Both the position numbers and the translations under genes were made by a program. 64,000 nt of DNA from the IMG/VR virus record IMGVR_UViG_3300032245_001714. One strand, given 5' to 3'. The stretch's first letter is position 1. Each line of letters starts with the position of its first letter. The notes under the pieces were generated by a model, which saw only the letters and a list, made by a program, of their open reading frames with translations, was not told the DNA's origin and searched no databases. Below are positions 6,142 to 21,050 of this stretch, in pieces. The stretch comes from a virus (lineage: Duplodnaviria > Heunggongvirae > Uroviricota > Caudoviricetes).

Positions 6142-7392
6142 ATGAAACGTTTACTCACATATCAACTATTTAAAAATCGGTTCGGTCTAAGTCGAGAGCA
6201 GACCAAATGGCTAAACTCTGTTGCTCCTAACCGGTGGAGTTTAAATCCTCAAACCGGTCTCATTGACGTGGACGGAAGTTTTGATTGCAGGAGACAGCTA
6301 CTAACGGATTTCAAGGGATTGCGTTTCGGAGATGTGAGTGGTGATTTCAATTTTCAAGGCAACCAGATCACAAGTCTGGACGGAGCACCTGAGACTGTTG
6401 GTGGGGATTTCCGCTGTCAAGATAATCAGATCACAAGTCTGAAAGGAGCACCGGTGACCGTTAAAGGTAATTTCCTCTGTAGCCATAATCAGATCGCAAG
6501 TCTGGACGGAGCACCGGAGAGTGTTGGTAAGAGTTTCATCTGTAACACTAATAAACTCACAAGTCTGAAAGGAGCACCGCAGACTGTTGGTGGAGAGTTC
6601 GCTTGTTGCTTTAATGAGATCACAAGTCTGGAGGGAGCACCACAGAGTGTTACTTATTTCAATTGTGGCTACAATAAAAAACTCACAAGTCTGAAAGGAG
6701 CACCGGAGAGTGTTGATGGGGATTTCAATTGTGAGCGCTGTGGACTCACAAATCTGGACGGAGCACCCGAGACTGTTGGTGGGGATTTCAAATGTAACCA
6801 TAATCAGCTCACAAGTCTGAAAGGAGCACCAGGGACTGTTAAAGGTGATTTCAAATGTAACCATAATCAGCTCACAAGTCTGGAGGGAGCACCACAGACT
6901 GTTGGTGGGGATAATCCCGACCAGAGTGGGGATTTCGAATGTAACCATAATCAGCTCACAAGTCTAAAGGGAGCACCAGGGACTGTTAAAGGTGATTTCT
7001 TATGTAACGATAATCCACTCACAAGTCTGGAGGGCTCACCAGAAAAAGTTGGAAGATTTTATGCCGGTGAACTGGGAGATTATAATGATCCATTAAATTG
7101 GCCTGAAGGCTGGAACAAAGAGGATAAAGGGTTTACCAAAACTCTCGCATCCAAACTAAAAGAAATTGATGCTCTTGGATCTGATGCAGATAAGAGTAAA
7201 TTAATCTCTATGTTACTGTCACTGACAGAGCCTAATTTACTAGACTATCTGATATCTAATAACCTTTCCCCATCAGATAAGTTCACGATCTATGGAGCAA
7301 TTAAAGCCAATATTCCTGATGTTTGGAATAAGATTAAAGACAAAGTGGATCCTGACGGTGCCACTTCCGATTTGATGGACCTTGGGTTTTAA
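6142..7392 (+). CDS. LRR-like 21-aa repeat protein, family member 1 (about 11 repeats, conserved C-terminal domain ending DLMDLGF)
   Basis: Repeats follow GDFxCxxNxLTSLxGAPxTVx; N-terminus MKRLLTYQLF; GATATATAGG sits 3 nt before the ATG. Confidence 0.8.
   Translation: MKRLLTYQLFKNRFGLSREQTKWLNSVAPNRWSLNPQTGLIDVDGSFDCRRQLLTDFKGLRFGDVSGDFNFQGNQITSLDGAPETVGGDFRCQDNQITSLKGAPVTVKGNFLCSHNQIASLDGAPESVGKSFICNTNKLTSLKGAPQTVGGEFACCFNEITSLEGAPQSVTYFNCGYNKKLTSLKGAPESVDGDFNCERCGLTNLDGAPETVGGDFKCNHNQLTSLKGAPGTVKGDFKCNHNQLTSLEGAPQTVGGDNPDQSGDFECNHNQLTSLKGAPGTVKGDFLCNDNPLTSLEGSPEKVGRFYAGELGDYNDPLNWPEGWNKEDKGFTKTLASKLKEIDALGSDADKSKLISMLLSLTEPNLLDYLISNNLSPSDKFTIYGAIKANIPDVWNKIKDKVDPDGATSDLMDLGF
6340..7040 (+). 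repeat. tandem 63-bp DNA repeats inside the LRR-like gene
   Basis: Near-identical units such as aatcagatcacaagtctgaaaggagcacc...gttggtggggatttc recur about 11 times. Confidence 0.7.
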
Positions 7393-7395
7393 TGC

Positions 7396-7408
7396 GATAT
7401 ATAGCAAT
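7396..7408 (+). promoter_or_regulatory. GATATATAG start-proximal motif
   Basis: taatgcgatatatagcaat followed by ATG; the upstream gene's stop TAA lies inside it. Confidence 0.4.
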
Positions 7409-8695
7409 ATGAAAAATCTTCTACCTTTCTCCCTATTCGAATCCAAGTCCATCACACCCGAGGATTGGGCTGGCAACTGGCAGGATCTGCCTGAGTGGAA
7501 ACTCCTACAACTAATGGGATTTGAAATCCTTGACACCAACCGCAATGGCACGGTCACTATCGGTAGTTCATACTCTGGGGTCAGACCTAGACTCACCTCT
7601 GCTGGCTATGTGAGAACCGCGGATCAGGGTTATGTGTATGATGATAAGGGGAAAGATCCAATGCCTAGAATGTTAGGCTATGTCATTATGAGATTTGCCA
7701 AGAATGGTATTCCTGGAATTCCCACCAAAGAACTAGATGCCATTATGAAGGCCAATCCTGGACTGGTGAAATACCTGCTGGATTTACCTAAGATTAGGGA
7801 GGAGGTTTTAAGCAGGACTGGGATCACTGACACCACTGGGGATATTTATAAAAAATATGGACTGAGTCCATCCGTAGTTAAATGGTTGGATAAATCCACA
7901 AAAAAAACCTGGAAGATCAATGAAACTACCGGAGAGATCGACGTTGAGGGTAGTTTTATCAATAATACTGATAACAAGCTCGGATTTAGAGGGGTTAAGT
8001 TTGGAGTGGTTGATAGGAATTTTGACATTGGAAATTTAGGACTCACCTCCCTAGAGGGAGCTCCTCGTGAGGTTGGAGGGAATTTCTATTGCGTGGGAAA
8101 TAAAGGGCTCACATCACTCGAATGGGCACCGCAGAAAGTGGGAGGAAATTTCGGTGTCAATAGCAACGGTCTCACCTCGCTCAAGTGGTCACCCCTGGTG
8201 GTTAAAGGTGATTTTTCCTGCCCTAGAAATGAGCTTAAAACATTAGAGGGAGCCCCAAAGAAAGTGATAGGCCGTTTTAATTGCTCTGATAATCCTCTGG
8301 TCTCTCTTTTAGGAGCGCCCGAAAGCCTCGGAGAATTTTCGTTATCAACCTGGAGCACTCCCCCTGATATGAGACTATTGGATTTTCGTAATGGCTGGGA
8401 CAAAAAAGGTGATGTTGAATTTTTAAAAACCATTCTTGCAAAGTTAAAAGAGATTGACGATCTCCCTAATGACAGAACAAAGCCTGTTGATAAATCAAAA
8501 TTAAAATTAATGCTTCTCTCGCTGACTGGTGCAGATAGTGTTGCCGATTTTCTTTTATCTGGCAAGATTCCAGTAGGAGACAAATTCGAAATCTACGGAA
8601 TGGTTAAAGACTCGCTCCCAGAGGTATGGGATAAAGTTAAGGACAAAGTAGATCCAGACGGAGCCACTTCGGATTTGCTTGACCTTGGGTTTTAA
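7409..8695 (+). CDS. LRR-like repeat protein, family member 2
   Basis: Start revised to MKNLLPFSLFES; the track ORF ran in-frame through the upstream gene. LRR-like repeats (GAPREVGGNFYCVGNKGLTSLEWAP...) and a C-terminus ...DPDGATSDLLDLGF. Confidence 0.75.
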   Translation: MKNLLPFSLFESKSITPEDWAGNWQDLPEWKLLQLMGFEILDTNRNGTVTIGSSYSGVRPRLTSAGYVRTADQGYVYDDKGKDPMPRMLGYVIMRFAKNGIPGIPTKELDAIMKANPGLVKYLLDLPKIREEVLSRTGITDTTGDIYKKYGLSPSVVKWLDKSTKKTWKINETTGEIDVEGSFINNTDNKLGFRGVKFGVVDRNFDIGNLGLTSLEGAPREVGGNFYCVGNKGLTSLEWAPQKVGGNFGVNSNGLTSLKWSPLVVKGDFSCPRNELKTLEGAPKKVIGRFNCSDNPLVSLLGAPESLGEFSLSTWSTPPDMRLLDFRNGWDKKGDVEFLKTILAKLKEIDDLPNDRTKPVDKSKLKLMLLSLTGADSVADFLLSGKIPVGDKFEIYGMVKDSLPEVWDKVKDKVDPDGATSDLLDLGF

Positions 8696-8698
8696 TGC

Positions 8699-8711
8699 GA
8701 TATATAGGACA
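8699..8711 (+). promoter_or_regulatory. GATATATAGG start-proximal motif
   Basis: gcgatatataggaca followed by ATG. Confidence 0.4.
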
Positions 8712-9620
8712 ATGAAGCATGTAAAATTATTCGAGGATTTTAATATTCCTACATCTCTTACTAAACAACAGATCGATTGGCTGGATAGGTGTACAAAAAA
8801 CTCTAAAGGTTGGAGTCTCAATCCATCAACGGGTCTTGTTGATGTTATGGGGAATTTCAATTGCATTCTTCAAAATCTGGAGGATTTTAAGGGGGTAAAA
8901 TTTGGACGGGTTGAAGGGAATTTCATGTGTCAAAAAAATGAGCTCAAAATTCTGACTGGAGCGCCTCTGAGTGTTGGTGGGAATTTCGATTGTAGCTCTA
9001 ATCCTCTAGAAAGTCTAGATGGATCACCAGAGACTGTTGTGGGAGATTTCAATTGCGATTGGTGTAAACCGCTTAAAAATCTGAAAGGAGCACCTCTGAG
9101 TGTTGGTGGAGATTTCTCCTGTAGCTCTAATAATCTAGAAAGTCTAGATGGAGCACCAGAGACTGTTGGTGGGAATTTCGATTGTCGCTTTAATGATCTT
9201 AAAAATCTGGAAGGAGCACCTCTGACTGTTGGCAAACTATTCAATTGTTCTCATAATATAAAACTTACCTCCTTTGCAGGAGCACCTGAAAGTGTAGGCA
9301 ACTTCGTGGGGGATGAAGGTTTATCCGGGTTATTAAATTGGTCTAAAGGCTGGGACAAAAAAGGTGATGCTGAATTTGCCAAAACCCTCCTTGCAAAGTT
9401 AAAAGAAGTGGACGATTGGAGGAATTTTCAACCTAAATTAAAAGGAATGCTTCTGTCACTGTTAGACGTTGACTGTATACTATCGAATAACTTTTCCCCT
9501 TCGGACAAGTTTGAGATCTATGGAATTATTAAAGAGACCCTGCCGGATGTTTGGTCTAAGGTTAAGGATAAATTAGATCCAGATGGAGCCACTTCCGATT
9601 TGATGGACCTTGGGTTTTAA
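8712..9620 (+). CDS. LRR-like repeat protein, family member 3
   Basis: Start revised to MKHVKLFEDF; repeats GAPLSVGGNFDCSSNPLESLDGSP...; C-terminus ...DPDGATSDLMDLGF. GATATATAGG lies upstream. Confidence 0.75.
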   Translation: MKHVKLFEDFNIPTSLTKQQIDWLDRCTKNSKGWSLNPSTGLVDVMGNFNCILQNLEDFKGVKFGRVEGNFMCQKNELKILTGAPLSVGGNFDCSSNPLESLDGSPETVVGDFNCDWCKPLKNLKGAPLSVGGDFSCSSNNLESLDGAPETVGGNFDCRFNDLKNLEGAPLTVGKLFNCSHNIKLTSFAGAPESVGNFVGDEGLSGLLNWSKGWDKKGDAEFAKTLLAKLKEVDDWRNFQPKLKGMLLSLLDVDCILSNNFSPSDKFEIYGIIKETLPDVWSKVKDKLDPDGATSDLMDLGF

Positions 9621-9660
9621 TGCGATATATAGAAAAATAATATAAAAAAAAACAATAAAA

Positions 9661-10005: not shown

Positions 10006-10698
10006 ATGAAAAAATTTATTTTAAGTGTTGTTGCTGCTACTATGTTATTTGGCTGTGAAACAAGCACAAAAACAGAAACGGTTGAAGATATCAAGGCTGA
10101 GAAAATTGTAAAAGTACATCAAGGTGCTTTTGCTTTTTGTGGAGCATCCGCAGCGGTTCCTACTGGAAGAAAGATTATTGTACAAGGTGTTGAGTATGAT
10201 GAAGGCTGTGCAATATGTCCAGTATTAGACGGACCATCTCTTTCTAATTTAGCAATGGAAGGTGTCAGTGGAACATATGGAAAGTTCAATGTAAACGATA
10301 ACTTCCAAACTCCTGATGGAACGGGTAATACTGTATGGTCTTTGTTTTGGTACTACGATTCCACAACAACAATACCTCAATTTAATCCTGAAACTAAGAA
10401 GTGGGAAATGTTACCCCCTGTAAATAGAGCTTTTGTGATCAATTTGGATTCTCCAAGTACAAGTGAGAGTAACATGTTTGCAATGCCAGGCGTTATCTTC
10501 GACACAACATCTACAGGTATCGTATTGGCAAAAGTGTATGGACCACTTAATGAAGCGGCAGTTCCATTACGTAAAGCAATACCTGTTCAAAATGGTATGA
10601 CTTCAATAACAGCAGCTAAATTGGGATTTCCTTATCCTGTTGGCACACCAGTTCCTGTTGCTGAGTATAGTAAAGAACTTCAGAAGAAAGAAAAGTAA
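10006..10698 (+). CDS. secreted lipoprotein (230 aa)
   Basis: Signal peptide plus lipobox MLFGC in MKKFILSVVAATMLFGCETS. Confidence 0.6.
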   Translation: MKKFILSVVAATMLFGCETSTKTETVEDIKAEKIVKVHQGAFAFCGASAAVPTGRKIIVQGVEYDEGCAICPVLDGPSLSNLAMEGVSGTYGKFNVNDNFQTPDGTGNTVWSLFWYYDSTTTIPQFNPETKKWEMLPPVNRAFVINLDSPSTSESNMFAMPGVIFDTTSTGIVLAKVYGPLNEAAVPLRKAIPVQNGMTSITAAKLGFPYPVGTPVPVAEYSKELQKKEK

Positions 10699-10720: not shown

Positions 10721-10746
10721 AGCAGGCTTCGGCCTGCTTTTTTATG
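10721..10746 (+). terminator. rho-independent terminator
   Basis: agcaggc ttcg gcctgct hairpin followed by a T run. Confidence 0.55.
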
Positions 10747-10757
10747 ATATATAAGAG

Positions 10758-11510
10758 ATGAAGCACATTAATAGCTATAAGGTTTTCGAGAGCGTAGGTA
10801 TTCTCACTTCAGAGCAGGAGGCTTGGTTAAACAAATTAACATTGAAAAATCGCTGGAACGTTAATGAGGACGGACTCGTAGATGTATATGGTGGGTTTTG
10901 GTGCAATGGTCAGGGTCTAACCGATTTCAAAGGTGTAAAATTCGGCCACATCAAGGGTAATTTCATCTGTAATAACAATCTTCTTGAATCCCTTGAAGGA
11001 GCGCCAATAAATGTTGAGGGAAGTTTTGTTTGTGATGGTAATAGACTCACGTCTTTAATCGGAGCACCTATTAGAGTGGGAGAAAGCTTTTGGTGTGACA
11101 AAAATAGAATAGTTTCTTTAGAAGGGCTTCCTGTACATATTGGTGGTAATTTTTGGGCGGCTGGTAATCCTGTCTCAGAAAAAGTTCTTGAAGCAGTGTG
11201 CCGCGAGATGCTAAAGGTAAGAATAAATTCTGATAAAAAAAGTTCTTATACAGAAGCTTTTCTAGAATGTCTTTCCAGCATTCGCATTCCTGATTCAGAT
11301 TTTGCTCTAATGTTATTCACTCTGCCTAGTGATATTTCTGACCCTATATTAGTAAAAAGAGTTAAATCTTACATCGAGAATAATCCGATTAAAAAGATAG
11401 GCTTGGTTTCGGATATAAAGAAAAAAATGCCAAATCTTTATTCTAAAATTTCTGATGAGTTTTCCTCTGATGCTGAACTAATGTCTGACTTAGGAGAATT
11501 GGGATTCTAG
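10758..11510 (+). CDS. LRR-like repeat protein, family member 4 (C-terminus ...SDLGELGF)
   Basis: MKHINSYKVFES; repeats GAPINVEGSFVCDGNRLTSLIGAP...; GATATATAAG lies upstream. Confidence 0.7.
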   Translation: MKHINSYKVFESVGILTSEQEAWLNKLTLKNRWNVNEDGLVDVYGGFWCNGQGLTDFKGVKFGHIKGNFICNNNLLESLEGAPINVEGSFVCDGNRLTSLIGAPIRVGESFWCDKNRIVSLEGLPVHIGGNFWAAGNPVSEKVLEAVCREMLKVRINSDKKSSYTEAFLECLSSIRIPDSDFALMLFTLPSDISDPILVKRVKSYIENNPIKKIGLVSDIKKKMPNLYSKISDEFSSDAELMSDLGELGF

Positions 11511-11713: not shown

Positions 11714-12466
11714 ATGAAACACATTAAGACATATAGATTGTTTGAGTCAAATGTAACCTCAGAACTCACCGAGGAACAGATAGATTTTTTGAATATGGGA
11801 TTCAGCGGGAATCCTTGGTCGATGGAGGATGGATTTATAAATTCGGGATATAGCTTTGATGTTAGTGGGAATAACTTAAAGGACTTTATGGGATTAAAAT
11901 TTGGGAAAGTTTCATATTTTAATTGCTCTAAAAATCTTCTAGAATCACTAGAGGGTAGTCCTAGAAAAGTTTCCCATAGTTTTGATTGTAGTTACAATAA
12001 ACTTGAAACACTCGAAGGATCTCCTGATTTTATTGGAGGAAACTTTGATTGTTCAAACAACAATCTTTTAACACTTCAGGGTGGTCCTAGTCAGGTTTTT
12101 GAAAATTATGATTGTTCTCATAATCTTCTTGAAAATTTAGAAGGACTTCCCCAATCAGGAGAAATCGGATCTTTATATTTTAATAATAACAATGTGGTTT
12201 CTCTCAGAGGTCTTAAAGTAAATGTTGTAACCAGTGGGTTTAACGGTCAGAAAAATCCAATATCAGAATCAGCGATTCATTATATTTTACCCGAGATGCG
12301 CAAGGGTAAATCATATAAGGAGGCGTTATTAGACATATGGACTTTTAGACTAGGAGAGGAGGACAAGTCACTACTCTATCCCGATATAAAAGAGGATTTA
12401 TCTTCTGAAGAGGTTAAAAGACTGGAAATGATGGCTAGATATAACAAATCTAGACACATGTTTTAA
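11714..12466 (+). CDS. LRR-like repeat protein, family member 5 (divergent C-terminus)
   Basis: MKHIKTYRLFES; repeats LESLEGSPRKVSHSFDCSYNKLETLEGSP... Confidence 0.7.
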   Translation: MKHIKTYRLFESNVTSELTEEQIDFLNMGFSGNPWSMEDGFINSGYSFDVSGNNLKDFMGLKFGKVSYFNCSKNLLESLEGSPRKVSHSFDCSYNKLETLEGSPDFIGGNFDCSNNNLLTLQGGPSQVFENYDCSHNLLENLEGLPQSGEIGSLYFNNNNVVSLRGLKVNVVTSGFNGQKNPISESAIHYILPEMRKGKSYKEALLDIWTFRLGEEDKSLLYPDIKEDLSSEEVKRLEMMARYNKSRHMF

Positions 12467-12497
12467 ATTAAAGAATATATACAAAAAAGTAATACTA

Positions 12498-13331
12498 ATG
12501 AGCAATATAAAATCATTTTCTGAATTTCTAAACGAAGGAGGGGGAGACTCTCTACTCGCTGCTGCGGGAGCAATGTTTAAAGACCTTATGAGCGATGATG
12601 ACAAAAAATCAGATAGCGAAACCCCAACAACAATAGGTACACATAAACCGGGGGAACAAACATCTATAGATTCAGGCAACGGAACTTCTGGAATAGACGT
12701 TAAGATTGTTCCCGGAAATGATGATTTCACTTTGTATATGCAACATCAACAGGGTATTGCTGGAGCTAAAGGTCTAATTCAGGCTTCTCAAGGAACGGGT
12801 AAGATGGCACCAGATACAATCAAAACAAAAAAAGGAACCAAGTACGCAAATCTGGTAATGAACATCCCTAAGGATAGACCTCAAATCAAAGCTAATCTAA
12901 TAAAAGCTTTAGATGCAGGCGATCAGAAAACTGCTGCTTTGTTATTTTTAAATATGTGGAAAGAGAAATGGGCTTCTAAAGGTAAAGAGGCACTTACCCT
13001 TATCAGTCAGCCAAAGAATGCAGCAGTAAAACAAACTATCCAAAAGTACTGCACAAAATACGGAGTTCCGTTTGAATTTGCAGCAACAGTAGCAAATATA
13101 GAATCTGGATTTAATCCCAATTCGGGCAACAGTAAATACAAAGGGCTATTTGCTCTTAGTCAGAGTGAATTCAGTAAATACGTTCCTGGTGGAAATATTT
13201 ATAATCTGGATAACAATGTAAACGCTGGAATACAATGTCTTAGAAACAACATCAGAGACTTTAAAAAATATTTGGGCCCAGCAACTTTAGCAACATTAAG
13301 ATTAGGATCTTGGGCTAGCTCAATAGCTTAA
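12498..13331 (+). CDS. lytic transglycosylase (SLT-like) domain protein carrying the N-terminal tag
   Basis: ESGFNPNSGNSKYKGLFALSQ fits the E-S...G-L-[MF]-Q SLT motif; N-terminus MSNIKSFSEFLNEG. Confidence 0.6.
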   Translation: MSNIKSFSEFLNEGGGDSLLAAAGAMFKDLMSDDDKKSDSETPTTIGTHKPGEQTSIDSGNGTSGIDVKIVPGNDDFTLYMQHQQGIAGAKGLIQASQGTGKMAPDTIKTKKGTKYANLVMNIPKDRPQIKANLIKALDAGDQKTAALLFLNMWKEKWASKGKEALTLISQPKNAAVKQTIQKYCTKYGVPFEFAATVANIESGFNPNSGNSKYKGLFALSQSEFSKYVPGGNIYNLDNNVNAGIQCLRNNIRDFKKYLGPATLATLRLGSWASSIA

Positions 13332-13340
13332 ATTATCTAT

Positions 13341-13793: not shown

Positions 13794-13946
13794 ATGGATA
13801 AGATAGAAGTTCAAAAACAAATCTTCCAAAAACAAAAAGATGGGTCGTTTACCGATGATGCGATTCGTATAGAAGCCTACATCGTCATCTCAGTACTCGT
13901 ACTGTGTTTTATAGGAATTGGTTATATTGCTATCAAGTTCGGATAG
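13794..13946 (+). CDS. small membrane protein (50 aa, read by hand)
   Basis: Manual translation: MDKIEVQKQIFQKQKDGSFTDDAIRIEAYIVISVLVLCFIGIGYIAIKFG. Its first 17 nt duplicate the start of the gene at 14070. Confidence 0.35.
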   Translation: MDKIEVQKQIFQKQKDGSFTDDAIRIEAYIVISVLVLCFIGIGYIAIKFG

Positions 13947-13953
13947 CATTTTT

Positions 13954-14055
13954 GGTCAGGTGGTGTAATGGCAACATGGGGTTCGACCCCCCAATCAACC
14001 CAGTAGTGGGACGATACAGAAAGGCAAGATACAGGTTCGAATCCTGTCCTGACCG
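13954..14055 (+). tRNA. tRNA-like gene, atypical (~102 nt)
   Basis: Acceptor GGTCAGG/CCTGACC, D arm GTGT-AATGGCA-ACAT and T arm ACAGG-TTCGAAT-CCTGT, but about 51 nt lie between the D and T arms. One hairpin there, GGGG-TTCGACC-CCCC, could carry a CGA anticodon, which would make it Ser-like. Confidence 0.5.
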
Positions 14056-14069
14056 CTAAAATAAAAATT

Positions 14070-14378
14070 ATGGATAAGATAGATGCAATTATCGAATACT
14101 GCAATAACATTGTTAAGAGGGATGATGTTATGCTTAAAACCCGATTCGGTGTAACCTCAGAAGAGCTTTCCCACATTGCTCACATTGGATCTTCTATAGT
14201 ACTTAATAGAATAGGTGCTAGACCCGGAGGAGGTTTTGTTGAAGCTGTTTGTGAGAATAACCTTATAGCAGCATCGGGAAGAGCGGATAGCACAATGCAG
14301 AAAGTCCTAGCTTATATGGCGATGACCTTTGCATCAGACTACGATAGAATTTCATACGAAGCAACTAAAAATATTTAA
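14070..14378 (+). CDS. hypothetical protein (102 aa)
   Basis: ORF track entry. Confidence 0.5.
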   Translation: MDKIDAIIEYCNNIVKRDDVMLKTRFGVTSEELSHIAHIGSSIVLNRIGARPGGGFVEAVCENNLIAASGRADSTMQKVLAYMAMTFASDYDRISYEATKNI

Positions 14379-14383
14379 ACGTT

Positions 14384-15196
14384 ATGCCAGAAGGACCAGA
14401 AGTTAGAAGAATGTCTGAGGGTTTAGCCCAGAGAATTGTCGGAAAAGATTTAGCTAAAGCTGAAGTGATCGGAGGTAAATGGTTAAAGAAGCCACCCACG
14501 GGGATTTCGATTATTCAAGAATCTCTGTTAGATTCCCCACAGAGAGTTCATTGGGTAAAGGTGAAAGGAAAATTCATCTATGCAAAAATAGGAGAGATCT
14601 TCATGTGGAACACGTTGGGAATGAGCGGAGGATGGAGAGATCTAAAAGGAAAGCACGCACATTTTGTTCTTGAATTCACCGATGGATCCTCAGTGTACTT
14701 TGATGATGTTAGAAGGTTTGGTAACATTTCATTCTATGATAATTCCAATCAGATTGAAGAGAAACTAAAGGGAGCTGGACCTGATCTACTTAACGAAGAT
14801 GTTGGGTTTGATTTATTTAAAGAAAGACTGGTAAAGAGAGGGAATAAAAACATTTGTCAACTTTTAATGGATCAGAAGGTTGTAAGTGGTATAGGAAATT
14901 ACATTAAAAGCGAATCTTTATATAGGGCAGGGATAAATCCCCATCTCAAGGCTAACGAGATTCCGGATGATGGATTAAAAAAGCTATGGGAGTGGAGCAG
15001 AAAAATTATAAAAAAGAGCTACGATCAGGGAGGTGCAACTCTGGCTACCTACACGGACATGGACGGAAACCACGGGAGTTTTGTTTTCTCTTTCGAAGTT
15101 TATCGGAGGGAAAAAGATCCTCTGGGTAATGAGATTAAACATGAAATAACACCAGACGGGAGAATGACCCACTGGGTACCTCAAATACAAAAATAA
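14384..15196 (+). CDS. Fpg/Nei-family DNA glycosylase (formamidopyrimidine / endonuclease VIII-like), zincless-finger type
   Basis: N-terminal MPEGPEV (catalytic Pro2, Glu3); H2TH motif VVSGIGNYIKSESLYRAGINP; the C-terminus lacks the Cys4 zinc finger. Confidence 0.75.
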   Translation: MPEGPEVRRMSEGLAQRIVGKDLAKAEVIGGKWLKKPPTGISIIQESLLDSPQRVHWVKVKGKFIYAKIGEIFMWNTLGMSGGWRDLKGKHAHFVLEFTDGSSVYFDDVRRFGNISFYDNSNQIEEKLKGAGPDLLNEDVGFDLFKERLVKRGNKNICQLLMDQKVVSGIGNYIKSESLYRAGINPHLKANEIPDDGLKKLWEWSRKIIKKSYDQGGATLATYTDMDGNHGSFVFSFEVYRREKDPLGNEIKHEITPDGRMTHWVPQIQK

Positions 15197-15200
15197 AAAC

Positions 15201-15428
15201 ATGGAATCTTTAACTATTAACTACTCGGAGGGAAGAGTAACCTCCATCAACAAAACATTTAATGGGGAATTTAAAGGCCGTTCTTTTGAAATATACGCTA
15301 ACTGGAATGAATGGGACGAGTGGACAGTTGAAAATATAATGTATTTAGATACTTCTCTTAGTGAGGAGATGAATTCCGAGACCTACGGAGAGATAGAATC
15401 TGCTTTTTTGGACGAAATGTATCAGTAA
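15201..15428 (+). CDS. hypothetical protein (75 aa)
   Basis: ORF track entry. Confidence 0.45.
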   Translation: MESLTINYSEGRVTSINKTFNGEFKGRSFEIYANWNEWDEWTVENIMYLDTSLSEEMNSETYGEIESAFLDEMYQ

Positions 15429-15465
15429 AGACTTTGGATATATACTTTAAATAAAAGAGTATAAA

Positions 15466-15966
15466 ATGCCAATATTTCAACTTACAGCGTCAAGAAGTTA
15501 TAATCCGGTAGATAATCCGGTTAACAGAACAGTCGGAACCGTGGGGGCTACATCAGGAAGCACAACGGTTAGCATCACTTCAGCTGATAGAGGAGCAGTT
15601 AGTGCTATTTCTTCCTCTATTGCAACAAGGACAGTAACTGTTATAGGTTCAACTCTTCCTCTAGGAGGCTCAGTTACCAGTGCTTCTGGCACAACTATCA
15701 CTTTAACTTATCCGTATTCAGTCTCAGTTTCAGCAGGTCCATCAGGAGATTGGATTAACTGGTATTTTAAAGACGCACCAAACGAAAAACAACTCCCTAT
15801 AACTAGTGTTTTAGCTGCATCAGGGTCAACATTAGCTTATCTCGACCTAGATGGAACAAATGCAACATTAACCGGAGTAACCGGACAATTGGGAATATCG
15901 GTTCTAAGAACAGTAGCTGGAACTACAGGATCTGTTTGGGGATACAGCAGAGGTTATTCAAACTAA
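15466..15966 (+). CDS. hypothetical Thr/Ser/Gly-rich protein (166 aa), possibly structural
   Basis: Composition only. Confidence 0.5.
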   Translation: MPIFQLTASRSYNPVDNPVNRTVGTVGATSGSTTVSITSADRGAVSAISSSIATRTVTVIGSTLPLGGSVTSASGTTITLTYPYSVSVSAGPSGDWINWYFKDAPNEKQLPITSVLAASGSTLAYLDLDGTNATLTGVTGQLGISVLRTVAGTTGSVWGYSRGYSN

Positions 15967-16028
15967 TAATAGTCCAAAACCAACACCTATAAGGGGGATT
16001 CAGATAATATTTGAGTCCCTCTTTATTT

Positions 16029-16040
16029 GATATATAGGGT
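16029..16040 (+). promoter_or_regulatory. GATATATAGGG start-proximal motif
   Basis: tgatatatagggt followed by ATG. Confidence 0.4.
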
Positions 16041-17129
16041 ATGCCTAACATTTTAAACTACACTTCTTTTAGCAATCACATAAAAGAATCCAAAATTAAC
16101 GAGGGATTTATCCCCTCTGGAGATCCAAACTGGCCCACAAATTGGAAGGACATGCCAGAATGGAAGACCCTCCAACAACTTGGTTTTAGCGATGTGACAA
16201 CTTCACGTATGGCTTTAAATCAAACTATATTGCTAAAAAACTTTACCCGAGATCTAGGATACAAGGATGGCATAGTTCTACAAAAAAGTGGCTACATTAG
16301 GGATAAATCGGTTTCTAGTGGTTTCATTAAAAGATATAAAGATTTCCCTGTCGATCTAAAGGATATTTTAGACTACCTAATACAAAGATGGGAGAAAGAT
16401 GTCCAGAGAGACATCAGAACTAAAAACCATGGGCCTTTAACTGATGATCAAATTAAAGCAGTTAATAGAGTTACCAAAGGAAAATGGAAGTATAACGATC
16501 AAACTAAAAAAGTTGACTTTTCATCCTCAGTTGAGGTAAATTCAGATAAAGACATCAGTGATCTCTCTGGTGTTCAGTTCGGAAAGGTCGATGGCTCCTT
16601 TGTTATCAGGGTAAAAGTCAAAGATCTAAATATAGCACCAAGATATGTTGGTGGTAATTTTAGGATTGACAGTAGTGATTTCTTAAAAAATCTAATTGGA
16701 TCCCCTGATGAAATCAGAGGGTCTTTCTCTATATACGGATCAAGAGTTCCTAGGGATCTATCTGGACTGACTCTTCCTGGGAATATTAAAGGTGGATTGT
16801 ATGTGAATTCATCAGATGACTTTGGATTTCATTTTTTCCCGAGCAAATATGACTGGACAATCGAAGGTATAATGAAGGCAATTTTAGAATTCAACGGAGG
16901 TTACAACACAGGTCATCTTCCAATAAAGAATAAGGAAAGTTTGGATTCCTTACTTTCTTATCTTGAGGGTGTAGGTTCAGGACATTATCTATATAAATAT
17001 TTTGAAGATAATCCGTTGGACATCTATCTCCTAGATTCTTTACCTGAGTTAAAGGAAAAAGTTTTAAAGAAATTAGGGATCAAAGACATTGGCAGAATAG
17101 GCAAGATGATAAGATCTGGATTATACTAA
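16041..17129 (+). CDS. LRR-like family member 6 (degenerate repeats, divergent C-terminus)
   Basis: MPNILNYTSFS...KINEG; shares the N-terminal region (...DLSGVQFGKVDGSF...APRYVGGNF); GATATATAGGGT lies upstream. Confidence 0.6.
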   Translation: MPNILNYTSFSNHIKESKINEGFIPSGDPNWPTNWKDMPEWKTLQQLGFSDVTTSRMALNQTILLKNFTRDLGYKDGIVLQKSGYIRDKSVSSGFIKRYKDFPVDLKDILDYLIQRWEKDVQRDIRTKNHGPLTDDQIKAVNRVTKGKWKYNDQTKKVDFSSSVEVNSDKDISDLSGVQFGKVDGSFVIRVKVKDLNIAPRYVGGNFRIDSSDFLKNLIGSPDEIRGSFSIYGSRVPRDLSGLTLPGNIKGGLYVNSSDDFGFHFFPSKYDWTIEGIMKAILEFNGGYNTGHLPIKNKESLDSLLSYLEGVGSGHYLYKYFEDNPLDIYLLDSLPELKEKVLKKLGIKDIGRIGKMIRSGLY

Positions 17130-17144
17130 ATCGAATTATATTAG

Positions 17145-17831
17145 ATGAAAAAAATATTAAATTTTAAAGAGCTTTTTGAAGCTGCTACCAATTTTCCTAG
17201 TAACATTTCTGAAATTCCTTCCCACGAGGAGTTAAGTAAACTTCCAAGTTTTTTGATGTTTAAAAATTTTATGCCCGCATCTTGGGTCACAGGTAGTGTT
17301 GCATACAAGAATGGGACAAGAACTTTAGGAATGGGGCCTGTGGTTTCTATTGACGGAAAACCATTTCATGTTTTTAATTTTTATCCTTTAAAAGGTCAGA
17401 TAATAAGAGATGGTTATACAGTTAGAAGGTGCAATCTTGTTACTATGGATGACTGGAATAAAGCCGTTGAGAATATGAGCAACTACTTCATTTCCACTCT
17501 TCTACCAAGAATCGGATTCAGAAATAATTACAACAGCAACATTGCTAAATTAAAAGCTGGAAAAAACCCAGAACTCATGAAAGAGATTCTCACAAATTCA
17601 GCAAAATTAGATCCATTTCCCGGATTGATTGAATATATTCTGGTATCCGCTCTATTAAATTCTGAAGATTCTAGTGAAATTGTAGATTTAATTTATGCGA
17701 GTCCCTATAAATTTAAAATCATGAGCTCTCTTAAAAAGAATAGTCCAGAGGTTTGGAAAATACTTAAAAATAAATTAGGTGATCTTGATTCGGTAGAAGC
17801 CTCTGCTGATTTGGGAGATCTAGGGTTTTAA
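17145..17831 (+). CDS. paralog of the LRR-family C-terminal domain (no repeats), ending ADLGDLGF
   Basis: MKKILNFKELFEA...; C-terminus PEVWKILKNKLGDLDSVEASADLGDLGF. Confidence 0.6.
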   Translation: MKKILNFKELFEAATNFPSNISEIPSHEELSKLPSFLMFKNFMPASWVTGSVAYKNGTRTLGMGPVVSIDGKPFHVFNFYPLKGQIIRDGYTVRRCNLVTMDDWNKAVENMSNYFISTLLPRIGFRNNYNSNIAKLKAGKNPELMKEILTNSAKLDPFPGLIEYILVSALLNSEDSSEIVDLIYASPYKFKIMSSLKKNSPEVWKILKNKLGDLDSVEASADLGDLGF

Positions 17832-17836
17832 TTAAC

Positions 17837-18316
17837 ATGTTTAAATACATTTCAGAAATACTAAAACAGTTTACCCGGGCTCAGAAGACCCTGGCTTTAC
17901 TGATGCTTCTTTTTTCAATTACGATTATAACAATAGCTCCCTCCCTTATATCTGCTTTAACTGTAGACTGCAAGGATCTTAAGGAGGAAAACGCAAGAAA
18001 CAGCTCTAGAATACAAATACTTGAGAATCAGGTTGACACTCTTAATGCTAAAATAAGAAGGGAGAGGAATGATTGCGGAGATAATGCTTACCAGAGGGAG
18101 AAGGAGTTTTATGCTATGCTGGAGGATTTAAGAAAGGATGCAAAGAAATACGAGGAGTCATCCTCTAATAAAATGTTGAGAATGGTTGTAAGAAGGCCAG
18201 CTTCAGACACAACAGAATCCCCTGTTACTGAGATTAGAAATGAAACGAGCATTAAATACCCAAAGATGTCTGATAAGATAAAAGATATCCAGAATAAGCT
18301 CAACCTTAAACACTAA
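17837..18316 (+). CDS. membrane-anchored coiled-coil protein (159 aa)
   Basis: An N-terminal transmembrane segment followed by heptad-like repeats. Confidence 0.5.
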   Translation: MFKYISEILKQFTRAQKTLALLMLLFSITIITIAPSLISALTVDCKDLKEENARNSSRIQILENQVDTLNAKIRRERNDCGDNAYQREKEFYAMLEDLRKDAKKYEESSSNKMLRMVVRRPASDTTESPVTEIRNETSIKYPKMSDKIKDIQNKLNLKH

Positions 18317-18318
18317 AA

Positions 18319-18966
18319 ATGACAGATTTACTAATACTCGTAAATATATTCGTTCTAGAAGTCATTTTAAGCATCGATAACGCAGCTGTTTTAGCTACGA
18401 TGGTAAAACCATTACCAACAGAAAAACGCAAAAAAGCGCTAACCTATGGACTTCTAGGAGCATATCTTTTTAGGTGGTTAGCATTAGTTCTTGCCAGCTG
18501 GCTTATTAAACTCACTTGGCTTAAAGTTCTTGGAGGAGCATACCTCTTTTATATAGCTTGGAAATCCTTATCTAAAAATGAAGGTAGCAAGGAACCCGGA
18601 GCTGTTAAGATTCCATTTTTGAATGCTTTCTGGTCCACTATTTTTATGATCGAGGTTATGGACTTGGTTTTTTCTATAGATAATGTTTTTGCAGCTGTAG
18701 CATTTACACCGAACCTGTGGCTTATCTGTGGAGGGGTTTTCATTGGAATTCTGGCTATGAGATTTGCAACAAACAGCTTTATAGACCTTCTTGAAAAAAC
18801 CCCAATTTTAGAAAAAGTGGCCTATTATGTTATAGGAGCTTTAGGGCTTAAATTGATAGCATCTTATTGGCTAAAAGATTTAACCACTGAACACGTGGAT
18901 CTTCTCTTCTCCGGAGGAGTTTTACTCTCTTTTATAATTCCAATTCTTTTGGGAAAAAAGAAGTGA
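18319..18966 (+). CDS. TerC-family integral membrane protein
   Basis: The duplicated signature ...LSIDNAAV... and ...FSIDNVFAAVA... within multiple transmembrane segments. Confidence 0.7.
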   Translation: MTDLLILVNIFVLEVILSIDNAAVLATMVKPLPTEKRKKALTYGLLGAYLFRWLALVLASWLIKLTWLKVLGGAYLFYIAWKSLSKNEGSKEPGAVKIPFLNAFWSTIFMIEVMDLVFSIDNVFAAVAFTPNLWLICGGVFIGILAMRFATNSFIDLLEKTPILEKVAYYVIGALGLKLIASYWLKDLTTEHVDLLFSGGVLLSFIIPILLGKKK

Positions 18967-19440
18967 TTACTTCTTCTTTAAAGGGTGAATGGTTTGAATC
19001 CAATTAGGAAATTCATCCAGAATATCCGCCTGACTAGGATCATATCCATACTTAGAATACTGCTTAGGCTCTGAAACTTTGAATCTCTCCTTTGGATTTT
19101 GTGAAAACTGCTTATGAGCAAAATCTATAACAAACCCCTGTAGATAAGGAGCCACGTGAGCATCTTTAGCTTTTGATGTCTCCGGGAAATAGATAACTTT
19201 TACAGGAAGCCTTTGATTTTCACACCATCTGAAAAACTCCAGAGTAAACCATGCGCAATTCCCTATTTCTTTATCGAATTTCTTACCCTTCCTTAGGTCG
19301 TATTCTTTGCCTAATTCGTCTAAAAAAACTTCGGCGAGTCTTTCACAACCTGCTTTTATGTGAGGTACTGACGTAACCACTGGCAGGTAATCGCTGTTTA
19401 ATGTTGCCGTATAGGTCTCAAATAGGGATAAGTATTTCAT
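18967..19440 (-). CDS. hypothetical protein; start revised to MKYLSLFETY
   Basis: The internal ATG is preceded by GGATATATACAGGA and yields a tag-like N-terminus. The longer track ORF would begin in a divergent promoter region. Confidence 0.5.
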   Translation of the reverse strand: MKYLSLFETYTATLNSDYLPVVTSVPHIKAGCERLAEVFLDELGKEYDLRKGKKFDKEIGNCAWFTLEFFRWCENQRLPVKVIYFPETSKAKDAHVAPYLQGFVIDFAHKQFSQNPKERFKVSEPKQYSKYGYDPSQADILDEFPNWIQTIHPLKKK

Positions 19441-19491
19441 TCCTGTATATATCCAATATACAATGATACTGAGGAGGATATATAGTCTGTA

Positions 19492-19992
19492 ATGGAGCAT
19501 ATTTTACTTTTTGAGAGCTTTTTAAAAAGGGACGATTTAGGATCTAGATCCAGATTTATAGGAAATTTAGTGTTTGACTTTTGGCATTTCGACACCAATA
19601 TTCAAAAATCTAATCTACCTCCTTCCTTAAACTCAGAAGAGCTTATCGAATTAGCCCCAAGCATTGCTCAGGGATATTTCACTAAAGGTAAAGGACCTGG
19701 AACATACCTAGGATGCGAGGAATCACCGACGGGAGAATTTGTTTCTATCGTTTTAACTGAACCCTCTCCCTTGAAATTTGACTTTGAAGTTTTTGACAGC
19801 GAATACGAAAGAGTGTGCGAGATTAAAAATACAAGCTTTGACACTCTTCTTAGTGATATTTCTAAGCTTGAAAATAGATTTAAAGTTGCTTCAATACTAA
19901 AAAAGACCCCGGATCTCTGGGATATATTAAAAAGAAATAACGATGCTGACTCGGCTTCGGCTTCTGCAGATCTGGGAGAACTTGGATTTTAA
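19492..19992 (+). CDS. paralog of the LRR-family C-terminal domain, ending ADLGELGF
   Basis: MEHILLFESF...; C-terminus DLWDILKRNNDADSASASADLGELGF; GGATATATAGTCTGTA lies upstream. Confidence 0.6.
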   Translation: MEHILLFESFLKRDDLGSRSRFIGNLVFDFWHFDTNIQKSNLPPSLNSEELIELAPSIAQGYFTKGKGPGTYLGCEESPTGEFVSIVLTEPSPLKFDFEVFDSEYERVCEIKNTSFDTLLSDISKLENRFKVASILKKTPDLWDILKRNNDADSASASADLGELGF

Positions 19993-20009
19993 TTTTACAA
20001 CATAAAGAT

Positions 20010-21050
20010 ATGAAAAGAATACTAGATTTTAAAATTTTCGAATCCTCATCAAATTTAACTGAGGAGCAAGAACAATTCCTCGAAGAGGTGGTTGACGGTG
20101 AATGGGAGTACAACTCCTTAACCAGAAGAATAGACATCCAAGGAGACTTGGATTGCTCCGATCACGATCTATCGGATTTTAAAGGAATTCTATTTGGAAC
20201 AGTCTCAGGAAACTTTGATTGTAGCCACAACGACTTAGATGGTCTAAAGGGTGCACCAGAAGAAGTTGGGGGTAGCTTTGATTGCGACTACAATAAATTA
20301 ACAAGTTTAAAGAATGGACCTTTAACAGTTGGAGTTGATTTCAATTGCTCTTATAACAAGAAGCTAAAAAGTTTAGAATTTGCCCCTAGTGAAATCGGAG
20401 GTAAAGTTGATTGCTCACATTGCGGATTAACTTCATTAGAAGGATTACCTAAAAAGATAAACGGCAGTTTAATCTGTAGCTATAATAATTTAGAGGATCT
20501 TTCAGGAGCTCCTAAATCAGTTAGATCTCTTATGGCTCAAAATAATGATCTTGAAACATTGGAAGGATGTCCGGAAGATATTTCTAAGAACATTAATGTC
20601 AGTAACAATAAACTTAAGAATCTAAAAGGACTTAAACCTGGCACGACATCTATTAAAGGAAACATGGATTTTTCTAAAAATCAGATCACAGATATAAGCG
20701 ATATTCCAATCCCTCAAGGAACCGTAAATTTTGAGGAGAATGGAATTGCTCCAAAAATTTATGATTCTCTTGTAAACACGTTTAAGGTAATGAAGCAATA
20801 TAATTTAAGTTTTAAAAATGCTTTACTTAGAAGTTGGGAAGATAGATGGTCCGATAAGTCTAATGTAATCAGAAATCTATTCTCATTAGCCGACGTTTCA
20901 ACTGCTTATGGTGCTATAACCGATCACCCTAAGAAGTTTGAAATAATAGATCATATTAAGAAGGAGCTTCCTGATATCTGGAAAACAATTGAAGATTACG
21001 ATAAAGAAGGTTCGGACGCATCTGCAGATCTTGCAGACTTAGGATTCTAA
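20010..21050 (+). CDS. LRR-like repeat protein, family member (C-terminus ...ADLADLGF)
   Basis: MKRILDFKIFES; repeats GAPEEVGGSFDCDYNKLTSLKNGP... Confidence 0.7.
   Translation: MKRILDFKIFESSSNLTEEQEQFLEEVVDGEWEYNSLTRRIDIQGDLDCSDHDLSDFKGILFGTVSGNFDCSHNDLDGLKGAPEEVGGSFDCDYNKLTSLKNGPLTVGVDFNCSYNKKLKSLEFAPSEIGGKVDCSHCGLTSLEGLPKKINGSLICSYNNLEDLSGAPKSVRSLMAQNNDLETLEGCPEDISKNINVSNNKLKNLKGLKPGTTSIKGNMDFSKNQITDISDIPIPQGTVNFEENGIAPKIYDSLVNTFKVMKQYNLSFKNALLRSWEDRWSDKSNVIRNLFSLADVSTAYGAITDHPKKFEIIDHIKKELPDIWKTIEDYDKEGSDASADLADLGF

Follow-up and report, generated by a model that had tools for sequence, protein, structure and literature searches.

A modular protein family in an uncultured jumbo phage

The window that we analyzed, a stretch of 64,000 nucleotides, is part of a jumbo phage, an uncultured large bacteriophage whose best helicase match among GenBank phages shows 29.6% identity. 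The original prediction had grouped nine open reading frames between positions 6,142 and 21,050 into one family of proteins with leucine-rich repeat (LRR)-like units. All nine are present; our data partly confirm this description of the family and partly support its interpretation. The family is phage-encoded and modular: each protein begins with an 11-13-residue N-terminal tag followed by a flexible linker, and ends with a helical module and a short tail that belongs to one of three classes. As judged by BLASTP with the C-terminal 120 aa, paralogy within the family is significant: the three tandem genes match one another at 1e-24 to 1e-36, and the members starting at 10758, 17145, 19492 and 20010 at 1e-4 to 1e-8. 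An acidic pI of 4.6-5.5 characterizes six of the nine proteins, and none of the nine scores above the curated cut-off of any Pfam family.

All members are encoded on the plus strand. The product of the first tandem gene (6142..7392, 416 aa) carries the tag MKRLLTYQLF and an LRR N-cap ahead of about 11 repeats of 21 aa; its helical C-terminal domain has the tail ..TSDLMDLGF. The second (7409..8695, 428 aa; tag MKNLLPFSLFES) has an N-terminal region of ~170 aa, five LRRs, and the C-terminal domain with the tail ..TSDLLDLGF. The third (8712..9620, 302 aa), whose product we modeled, combines the tag and the N-cap with six LRRs; its C-terminal domain consists of six helices and likewise has the tail ..TSDLMDLGF. 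Further downstream lie two genes for LRR proteins of 250 aa each, one with three to four repeats and the tail ..MSDLGELGF (10758..11510), the other with about five repeats and a tail of another class, ..EEVKRLEMMARYNKSRHMF (11714..12466). A divergent member of 362 aa (16041..17129) has degenerate LRRs, a weak SAM_2 match (E = 0.0018), an N-terminal extension like that of 7409, whose ortholog it matches at E = 5e-17, and a tail of the third class, ..GKMIRSGLY. Two non-LRR proteins carry an unrelated body between the tag and the common C-terminal module: one of 228 aa (17145..17831; tag MKKILNFKELFEA, tail ..SADLGDLGF) and one of 166 aa (19492..19992; tag MEHILLFESF, tail ..SADLGELGF), the latter with only the last ~45 aa of the module. 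The final member (20010..21050, 346 aa) has about eight LRRs and, behind its C-terminal module, ends in ..SADLADLGF.

The surrounding genes are small accessory and metabolic genes, for example Fpg, TerC, SLT and an exonuclease, with no tail module there. A neighboring gene at 5046..6041 (plus strand) encodes a tagged protein with an HExxH motif (HEMAH); it and the tandem array belong to one high-identity mosaic block. Among the sequences that we read, ~85 kb from the contig and 21 kb from the relative, there were no head genes. The sole protease in the stretch that we read is a true ClpP (26314-26991; PF00574 at 3e-57), which adjoins SmpB and an M28 peptidase, not head genes.

Seven members are LRR solenoids of the cysteine-ladder type

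The predicted 21-residue repeat is real. From 605 exact 21-aa units in the window proteins and their homologs, we derived the consensus G1 G2 x F4 (96%) x C6 (95%) x x N9 (99%) x L11 (96%) T S L14 (99%) x G16 A P18 (100%) x x V21 (91%). The number of repeats ranges from about 3 to 11, not from 5 to 11 as first described. Variation is concentrated at positions 3, 5, 7, 8 and 10, and the x positions of the unit are variable (H = 2.7-3.5 bits). These five positions are the x residues of the LxxLxLxxNxL segment, which line the concave binding face in LRR proteins. The N-terminal module ..EQxxWL..W.LNxxTGLVDVxGxF..DFKGxxFG proved to be an LRR N-cap, found in seven proteins; in 7409 and 16041 it is internal, following a common N-terminal extension of ~100 aa (E = 1e-10).

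The seven members with repeats are true LRR solenoids. Their 21-residue units place them in the cysteine-ladder type, in which LRR position 4 is F and position 6 is C. A solenoid was implied in the original prediction, and an AlphaFold2 model, Foldseek and NCBIfam agree on it. In sequence, the 605 units fit the LRR superfamily pattern of tandem 20-30-residue units with the segment LxxLxLxxN/CxL. The 8712 protein was modeled with a pLDDT of 91.3 as a curved solenoid with a parallel beta-sheet on its concave face. Foldseek matched this model to InlJ and IpaH, with InlJ (PDB 3bz5) as the best PDB match. InlJ is also the only named NCBIfam match, for the 6142 protein (E = 2.9e-16); since the curated cut-off is 1700, its score of 59 bits indicates a common repeat type and not orthology.

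The C-terminal module and tails extend beyond the LRR proteins

In the LRR members, the C-terminal domain spans ~85 aa and is predicted to be a helical bundle of six short helices. It has a pLDDT of ~80-90 when packed on the LRR and of 66.5 alone, and the C-terminal 85-120 aa match no Pfam or NCBIfam family. The extreme C-terminus, predicted to be invariant, follows [ST][SA]DLx[DE]LGF in seven of the nine proteins, but 11714 ends in ..ARYNKSRHMF and 16041 in ..MIRSGLY. These two ends match two other tail classes of metagenomic homologs (..TVNRIKNYL and ..LVRSGIM). Outside the window, homologs also conserve the -DLGF tail, as proposed. Since its Leu, Gly, Asp and Phe codons differ among paralogs, the tail is selected as a peptide.

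Proteins 17145 and 19492 had been described as consisting of the C-terminal domain only. Instead, both have an unrelated stretch of 110-140 aa, to which only the final ~45-90 aa of the module are joined. A profile search with the C-terminal module also found proteins P0155-P0164, whose bodies are unrelated; all end in ..ADLGDLGF and most carry the same N-terminal tag as the family. Unrelated bodies that have no LRRs can also stand between the tag and a class-A tail, in the window as well as elsewhere.

An N-terminal tag and a promoter-like box recur across the clade

The tag, with the consensus MKHIKLFExF[IL]NE (M-K-H-[IL]-K-L-F-E-x-F-[IL]-N-E), reaches far wider than the LRR family. It is found on 21 of 103 open reading frames in the window, where 0.34 are expected, and across the clade loci on 221 open reading frames in 82 unrelated families; carriers make up ~14-20% of open reading frames. 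An [LIVM]xE motif ends at residues 7-14 in 65 of the 82 families, compared with 8 of 82 in a control stretch. The pLDDT of the tag is low, and the linker behind it differs in length. Its codons vary, but the peptide is conserved: residues 7 and 10 are aromatic, and residues 8 and 13 are Glu. The census of tagged cargo is effector-like. It includes SLT (three), CHAP (two), lysozyme, HExxH peptidases, nucleases, helicases, ATPases and matches to "internal virion protein with endolysin domain", and is enriched for cell-wall hydrolases. Ordinary enzymes are tagged as well (pterin-4a dehydratase, a P-loop kinase and PolX).

The tag usually begins 3-6 nt after a promoter-like box, GATATATAG. Ahead of the first family gene, the box lies at 6129..6137 (plus strand), 4 nt before the ATG, and further copies precede other family genes (7396-7404, 8699-8707, 10746-10754, 16029-16037 and 19477-19485). 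The box has 21 matches against 5.2 expected, a number reached in none of 100 shuffles. One copy lies directly 3' of a terminator hairpin, and the arrangement of box and tag recurs in L005, L012, L014 and IMG/VR contigs. Because the tag is so tightly tied to a box that lies only 3-6 nt before the start codon, its conservation could be due in part to expression and not to targeting; the tag is also found on genes within operons that have no box.

Gain, loss and divergence between related phages

The family changes fast between related phages, by gain and loss of genes and repeats and with raised dN/dS. In the 333-kb contig of a relative (L001), which served as the comparison genome, the members 10758, 17145 and 19492 are missing and two extra tandem copies are present. 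One exact 21-aa repeat differs between 6142 and its ortholog, and 11714 shares only 55% identity with its own. These differences bear out the predicted variability. For the tandem genes, dN/dS is 0.49-0.97 (about 0.5-1.0), compared with 0.03-0.19 for their neighbors. The highest value is that of 7409 (0.97), where the LRR part accounts for 13 of the 17 replacements (P = 3.5e-5). The original prediction had proposed diversifying selection; dN/dS is raised, but values at or below 1 fall short of showing positive selection. That dN/dS never exceeds 1 counts against an explanation by diversifying effectors.

Slippage and gene conversion, which had been proposed from near-identical repeats, are overstated, since near-identity in the DNA is limited to a single recent duplication and to the extreme 3' ends. 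The 63-bp tandem units show only 66-74% matches, for example 8.7 copies at 71% in the first gene (6364..6912, plus strand) and 4.3 copies at 66% in the third (8958..9232, plus strand). A more recent 147-bp duplication at 6779-7052 (88%) is the sole DNA repeat of such high identity. Of the last ~100 nt of the three tandem genes, described as almost identical, the full 102 nt are 76-81% identical and only the last 27 nt reach 89-100%; TAATGCGATATATAG, just after these, is near-identical too.

Discussion

We favor, with a probability of roughly 0.4, a reading in which the family forms a diversifying set of LRR effectors, modular in build, with ends that direct the proteins to a phage machine, perhaps the capsid. 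Together, the tag and tails look like a system that addresses effectors of the phage to a putative destination. We infer that the family members are protein-binding effectors of a jumbo phage: their LRR face probably grips variable host proteins, such as defense or envelope components, and their constant ends would couple this variable binder to a machine that the phage specifies. The N-terminal tag may act like the capsid-targeting sequence (CTS) of phage T4 internal proteins, directing the protein into the prohead and being clipped after [LIV]-x-Glu. The LRR proteins would then be delivered with the DNA, alongside tagged cell-wall hydrolases, peptidases, nucleases and ATPases, while the C-terminal tail might dock on a second partner. 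The original prediction had spoken of a packaging-like tag. The tag is real, clade-wide and loosely like the T4 CTS; packaging and injection are putative.

Possibly, though we think it unlikely, the proteins are cytoplasmic effectors that stay inside the cell and whose ends are not address labels, expressed from phage-specific promoters on leaderless or near-leaderless mRNAs. The tag would be conserved since it favors both initiation and early elongation on these mRNAs, and the C-terminal helices would just cap the solenoid. The position of the box, which leaves no room for a Shine-Dalgarno sequence, the copy that follows a terminator, and the recurrence of this layout in related contigs all fit such an account, as do the ordinary cytoplasmic enzymes among the tagged proteins and a C-terminal domain that is confidently predicted only when packed on the LRR. 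Conservation of the tag as a peptide despite varying codons argues against it, as do tagged operon-internal genes and the enrichment of cell-wall hydrolases. In addition, bodies without LRRs carry the class-A tail and its helix too, and there is no solenoid there for them to cap.

We consider it improbable that the ends link the family to the Clp system that the phage itself encodes, with the proteins serving as adaptors bringing LRR-bound host proteins to ClpC/ClpP, or with the ends serving as degrons that time the proteins' own destruction. The clade does encode ClpP, which directly adjoins a family gene in L005, and in L014 a 744-aa ClpC-like AAA+ protein with a VGF loop lies 2 kb from four tandem family genes. 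The last three residues of class-A tails, [LIV]-G-[FL], correspond to the tripeptide that Clp ATPases use for docking on ClpP; class-D tails, such as ..ARHKKRLI, are similar to RRKKAI, the ClpX tag of MuA; and a binder followed by an acidic linker and a C-terminal peptide is the layout of the SspB adaptor. However, these putative likenesses are 3-6 residues long, the docking tripeptide of known ATPases lies in an internal loop and not at a C-terminus, charge differs between the tail classes, and ClpP is common in large phages. Very unlikely, in our view, is a receptor-binding or virion-surface set, in which the LRR proteins would sit on the particle, for example on fibers or as decoration, and recognize host surface structures. 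LRR domains are found in fiber-like proteins of phage Goslar (bioRxiv 10.64898/2026.04.21.720040) and an LRR-like protein in a vibriophage tail module (PMC10945359), and the variation is of the kind expected for host-range proteins. Yet the family proteins are small (166-428 aa), with no sign of trimerization and no fiber or baseplate attachment domain. We do not favor this alternative, which the original prediction had also offered, because the genes lie among accessory genes outside any tail module and share their tag with ATP-dependent cytoplasmic enzymes such as ATPases, helicases and kinases.

Several uncharacterized LRR proteins have the same 21-aa unit: CDS0008 of Vibrio phage VB_VaC_SRILMA, proteins of the 735-kb phage LR756501 and of PHROGs 21719 and 7816, and 350-400-aa proteins encoded in ~20 Chlorobiaceae MAGs. 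Their unit is GNFxCSNNNLTSLEGAPQSVQ, with 53% identity over the repeats, but they do not have the N-terminal tag, the LRR N-cap, the helical C-terminal domain or the tails, and no neighboring genes in the Chlorobiaceae loci are tagged. The Listeria internalin InlJ likewise has a 21-residue LRR with Cys in place of the hydrophobic residue of position 6 (LxxLxCxxNxL), matching the cysteine ladder seen here in 95% of units. The phage-encoded proteins are nevertheless not internalins: they have no signal peptide, internalin cap, inter-repeat (Ig-like) domain, or LPXTG or other wall anchor, and instead begin with a hydrophilic tag (MKHIK..) and end in a helical bundle. Nor are they NEL effectors of the IpaH/SspH type, since no NEL E3-ligase domain follows the LRR. 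Any delivery would be through the phage capsid, in contrast to the type III secretion systems used by YopM, IpaH and SspH/SlrP.

The T4 internal proteins are diverse anti-restriction proteins with only the CTS in common (PMC3012670). As in the clade described here, a short N-terminal sequence of about 10 residues is common to otherwise unrelated, fast-evolving proteins, and those of T4 act against host defenses. The T4 CTS, MKTYQEFIAE, is cleaved once after its end (PMC8442874). Both it and the phage tag fit MK..[YF]xxFIxE, ending in [LI]-x-Glu, in an alignment that has a 3-residue gap and is too short for statistics. Other features weigh against capsid targeting: the proteins here are mostly acidic, unlike the basic T4 proteins; the tag occurs on about a fifth of open reading frames, compared with a handful in T4, a very large and strange set to package; and it is linked to the promoter-like box.

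In giant-phage heads, paralog families differ in copy number between phages (PMC5694885). The expanded families A and B of SPN3US and the inner-body proteins of phiKZ vary in number among jumbo phages much as the family here does, and this pattern is all that they have in common with it. Most of their propeptides exceed 100 aa, proteomics has proven that they are located in the virion, and none of the nine proteins has a Pfam match to giant-phage head families such as PF12699. The DarB protein of phage P1 has an N-terminal packaging signal (PMC9024508), and in both the P1 Dar proteins and the giant-phage head paralogs, loading into the head through N-terminal signals or propeptides is followed by ejection.

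LRR domains of the family

All nine ORFs of the family, which we name by their start positions (6142, 7409, 8712, 10758, 11714, 16041, 17145, 19492 and 20010), are present and begin with ATG at those positions. The statistics of 605 exact units, together with an NCBIfam match to InlJ, identify the 21-residue repeat originally described as LRR-like as a true LRR. The consensus of these units is G-G-x-F-x-C-x-x-N-x-L-T-S-L-x-G-A-P-x-x-V, with F4, C6, N9, L11, L14 and P18 conserved at 95-100% and positions 3, 5, 7, 8 and 10 highly variable. The latter are x positions of the LxxLxLxxNxL motif, which in LRR proteins lie on the concave binding face. There are between 3 and 11 units in each of seven of the nine proteins, which bears out the upper end of the predicted range of 5-11 and lowers the other. 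The LRRs of 16041 are degenerate, and this protein is tied to the family by its LRR region (E = 5e-17) and has an N-terminal extension of ~100 aa in common with 7409 (E = 1e-10).

The NCBIfam match is that of 6142 to the cysteine-ladder internalin InlJ, with an E-value of 2.9e-16 and a score that falls far short of the curated full-length cut-off. The repeat type is alike, but the family proteins are without the defining features of internalins; because they also lack those of NEL effectors, we rejected membership in either group. A Pfam scan of the family gave only sub-threshold matches (LRR_9, LRR_4, DUF4893 and SAM_2), and the only BFVD matches were weak LRR hits to giant viruses and uncultured phages.

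A C-terminal module and tail on unrelated proteins

The family proteins end in a helical C-terminal module (~85 aa) and a short tail. An invariant -DLGF end had been predicted for all nine; it is found in seven, as [ST][SA]DLx[DE]LGF. In the other two, 11714 ends in ..EEVKRLEMMARYNKSRHMF, which aligns without gaps to a ..PEEIRRYDALTTVNRIKNYL class of metagenomic homologs, and 16041 ends in ..GKMIRSGLY, resembling a ..LVRSGIM class. The proteins 17145 and 19492 had been proposed to consist of the C-terminal domain only, but each has an unrelated body in front of the module's last 45-90 residues. Modelled alone, the C-terminal domain reached a pLDDT of just 66.5, and a word-indexed homolog search with 17145 returned nothing beyond 17145.

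We searched 1.84 billion representative proteins with a profile of the C-terminal module and obtained only 21 at E <= 0.001. Among them are P0155-P0164, whose bodies are entirely different and unannotated and whose common end consists of K..P.[LIV]W..I, an acidic linker and SADLGDLGF, so that the motif is present outside the window, on these proteins and on metagenomic homologs. Most of P0155-P0164 also have one N-terminal tag in common (MKHIKIFEAFE, MRYLKNFKLFEA, MKNLSSFALFEY or MKHLKTFSLYES). The tail further occurs on another C-terminal domain subtype (..GDLDDVGF, ..SDLGDVGL), and a Pfam scan of the non-LRR tail-bearing proteins found no match. The 120 best homologs of 8712 are all annotated as "hypothetical", with no name on any; 65 end in a class-A tail (..DLGDLGF type), at least 28 in another of three classes, and 92 carry the N-terminal tag. 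A full-text literature search returned no paper with the tail strings. What is conserved in the tail is the peptide: distant paralogs encode its Leu, Gly, Asp and Phe with differing codons, and we therefore rejected gene conversion as the source of its conservation.

A clade-wide N-terminal tag and a promoter-like box

The N-terminal tag predicted for the family is real and extends across the clade. The motif M..[ILVM]..[FY]..[FYW] stands at the head of 21 of the 103 window ORFs, where 0.34 are expected when residues 2-21 are shuffled (none of 2000 shuffles reached 21). Over all clade loci, 221 of 1569 ORFs of >= 80 aa have it, in 82 unrelated families, including ORFs on the related loci L005, L012 and L014 and on the IMG/VR loci L015-L122. 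The consensus is M-K-H-[IL]-K-L-F-E-x-F-[IL]-N-E, about 13 residues, and [LIVM]-x-E ending at residues 7-14 is found in 65 of the 82 families, compared to 8 of 82 for an internal control stretch. The tag has low confidence in the structure model, and in the alignment a linker of variable length follows it.

Tagged window genes include 5046, 21071, 21501, 22325, 30407, 30696 and 51089, with 29637(-), 34396(-) and 35404(-) on the minus strand, as well as three cell-wall hydrolases (SLT at 12498, CHAP at 27453 and SLT at 28254). The tag is also carried by an RNase T exonuclease, by a MoxR-like AAA ATPase and by HExxH proteins. The annotatable tagged proteins comprise three SLT and two CHAP proteins, phage lysozyme, HExxH or DUF2201 metallopeptidases, RNase T, PolX, SNF2 helicase, MoxR and other AAA ATPases, an ATP-grasp protein, a P-loop kinase and Pterin-4a dehydratase. 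For ten IMG/VR proteins with the tag, PHROG annotation gave almost nothing, and tblastn of a 23-aa tag peptide against GenBank phages found no match. The stretch at 1-4000 has a G+C of 0.49-0.53, versus about 0.36 elsewhere in the window, and still holds tagged genes at 1699-2238(-) and, for Pterin_4a, at 3557-3949(-).

Most tagged genes have the sequence GATATATAG 3-6 nt upstream of their ATG. It is the main form of a promoter-like box, RATATATAR, with 21 matches in the window against 5.2 expected, for example at 5033-5041, 6129-6137, 7396-7404, 8699-8707, 10746-10754, 16029-16037, 19477-19485 and 51060-51068, and on the minus strand at 3953-3961(-) and 30072-30080(-). One copy directly follows a terminator hairpin. 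Box and tag are also paired in L005, L012 and L014, and the pattern GATATATAG-N3-5-ATGAAACA has 114 matches in IMG/VR, on contigs of up to 480 kb, 50 of which run on into the rest of the tag. A box this close to the ATG leaves no space for a Shine-Dalgarno sequence and so implies leaderless or nearly leaderless mRNAs; the ECF-type sigma factor that the phage encodes at 62846-63379 may recognise it.

Variation of the tandem genes

Repeat number and sequence vary relative to the related contig L001. Three members (10758, 17145 and 19492) have no ortholog in L001, which has two extra tandem copies of its own; divergence in the region is greatest in 11714 (55% identity) and 16041 (69%), against 80-99% identity in neighbouring genes, except for a 75-aa ORF at 15201 (63%). 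Between 6142 and its ortholog there is a difference of exactly one 21-residue repeat, and the lengths of homologs step by multiples of 21 residues. The near-identity predicted at the DNA level is mostly absent: the 63-bp repeats are 66-74% alike apart from one 147-bp duplication (88%), and the final 102 nt of the tandem genes are 76-81% alike, with near-identity limited to the last 27 nt and the next 15 nt.

Nei-Gojobori dN/dS values against L001 are 0.49, 0.97 and 0.60 for the three tandem genes, 0.17 for 11714, 0.21 for 16041 and 0.03-0.19 for eleven neighbour genes. In 7409, 13 of 17 replacements fall in the 117-residue LRR part (P = 3.5e-5); in 8712 they cluster in the N-cap, the conserved module before the LRRs, and not in the LRR part. 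By these values, which are all below 1, and by this replacement pattern, the tandem genes are under relaxed constraint or diversifying selection. The three genes lie, with a HExxH gene and two small genes, in a block at 5.0-10.7 kb that is 91-96% identical to L001 (dS 0.02-0.09, except 0.69 for 10006-10698 at the block edge). Its flanks are about 76% identical, as are the genes after it (11800-20400; dS 0.6-3), which indicates a recent mosaic exchange of the block that carries the array.

The phage and its relatives

The window comes from a 105,858-nt metagenome contig in ENA, whose upstream extension holds only small unknown ORFs; its relative L001 is a JGI contig of 332,679 nt, Ga0492746_0000002 of 3300045442. 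The gene content is of the large bacteriophage type, with SLT and CHAP cell-wall hydrolases, Fpg, TerC, T4-type RNA ligases, ClpP, SmpB, an ECF-type sigma factor and a Dda-like helicase whose identity to any GenBank phage does not exceed about 30%. At the DNA level, Megablast of the region found no match among GenBank phages. ClpP (PF00574, 3e-57), SmpB (PF01668, 1e-48) and an M28 peptidase form a cluster at 25127-26991(-), and a related contig encodes a ClpC-like AAA+ unfoldase (L014:12941-15175); the clade thus has its own proteolysis and trans-translation genes. An RNA-repair-like set at 40813-41907(-) and 47815-50922(-) comprises an Rnl2-like ligase with a PHA02142 OB domain, a T4 Rnl1-like ligase, a P-loop kinase, a metallophosphatase and a methyltransferase, and Thg1 is present on the related contig L005. 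We also found a homing endonuclease (phrog_655, 7e-52) at 24011-24688(+) and an HNH endonuclease family (phrog_1314) split across two adjacent ORFs at 52661-54567(+).

Three Rfam tRNA matches, at 13954-14055(+), 57184-57290(-) and 57722-57814(-), are longer than usual (93-107 nt), and for this reason we considered a eukaryotic giant virus as the source. We rejected it because SLT, CHAP, ClpP, SmpB, the ECF sigma factor and lipoprotein signal peptides indicate a bacterial host. ARAGORN recovered only one of the three, with an odd anticodon call, and the long matches may be intron-bearing or atypical tRNAs.

Possible roles of the conserved ends

LRR domains are protein-binding scaffolds, and the pattern of variation and gene turnover points to binders that engage changing partners, most simply host proteins. 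A receptor-binding set, as the original prediction offered, is unlikely given the genomic context and an N-terminal tag common to ATP-dependent cytoplasmic enzymes. Conserved ends around interchangeable bodies suggest address signals. We propose, with a probability of about one in four, that uncultured phages of one clade, known from contigs of 120-480 kb, have a single universal N-terminal address for capsid loading, MKHIKLFExF[IL]NE, with tails naming a second partner. By means of the tag, dozens of unrelated proteins would enter the capsid and be injected along with the DNA, among them cell-wall hydrolases, peptidases, nucleases, helicases, ATPases and diversifying LRR binders; a dedicated promoter abutting the start codon would drive the tagged genes, and alternative tails (..DLGDLGF, ..YNxIKxYL, ..VRxGIM, ..RHKKRLI) would specify the second partner. 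Such a programmable system of protein delivery would be far bigger than that of the T4 internal proteins.

Delivery together with the DNA would agree with the surplus of cell-wall hydrolases and other effector-like enzymes in the tagged set. Against it, the family proteins are mostly acidic, and the tagged proteins are very numerous, metabolic enzymes among them. The tag is also closely tied to a promoter-like box next to the ATG, which makes a role in expression a strong competing explanation. As a third possibility, the ends may link the family to the ClpP and ClpC proteins that the clade itself encodes; the tails resemble known Clp docking or recognition peptides, over a few residues only.

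If the ends are address labels, they would give a simple sequence rule for the proteins that a jumbo phage delivers or localises, an open question in most large phages, and would make such proteomes readable straight from metagenomes. The 13-residue tag could then be reused for loading foreign proteins into particles, as the T4 tag already has been. The LRR battery would be a catalogue of binders for host proteins, with the variable concave face as contact sites. Even as an expression signal, an ATG-abutting promoter joined to a conserved nascent peptide at a fifth of genes would be an unusual mode of expression. A fold and a domain map are now available for a family with thousands of unannotated metagenomic relatives.

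Comparison with known systems

Phage LRR proteins and capsid-targeting-like tags are known already. We found no description of the architecture of tag, linker, optional extension, N-cap, LRRs, helical domain and tail class, or of a clade-wide tag with its own promoter, and regard both as new. The 21-residue unit itself occurs in Vibrio phage SRILMA, the 735-kb phage LR756501, Lak phages and two function-unknown PHROGs, as well as in 350-400 aa cysteine-ladder proteins of about 20 Chlorobiaceae MAGs, but all of these are without the tags, N-cap and C-terminal domain. In a scan of the genome collection, the 6142 protein had no relatives, and a consensus query brought up bacterial LRR proteins lacking tags. 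The Chlorobiaceae proteins (L127, L129-L134, L137-L149) have no N-terminal tag, N-cap or tail, and their loci have a G+C of 0.41-0.47 and no tagged neighbour gene; they hint weakly at the host or at where the repeat came from.

P1 DarB has a packaging signal at its N-terminus (PMC9024508), and giant phages of the SPN3US type pack paralog families of variable size in the head (PMC5694885). The closest documented precedent for the tag is the T4 capsid-targeting sequence (CTS), which otherwise diverse internal proteins have in common (PMC3012670) and which, as MKTYQEFIAE, is clipped once by the prohead protease (PMC8442874). The clade tag, in the form MKHIKLFESFINE, would be its counterpart: aligned as MK-HIK-LFESFINE against MK---TYQEFIAE, the two have MK, an aromatic residue, F-I and a terminal Glu in common, at the cost of a 3-residue gap.
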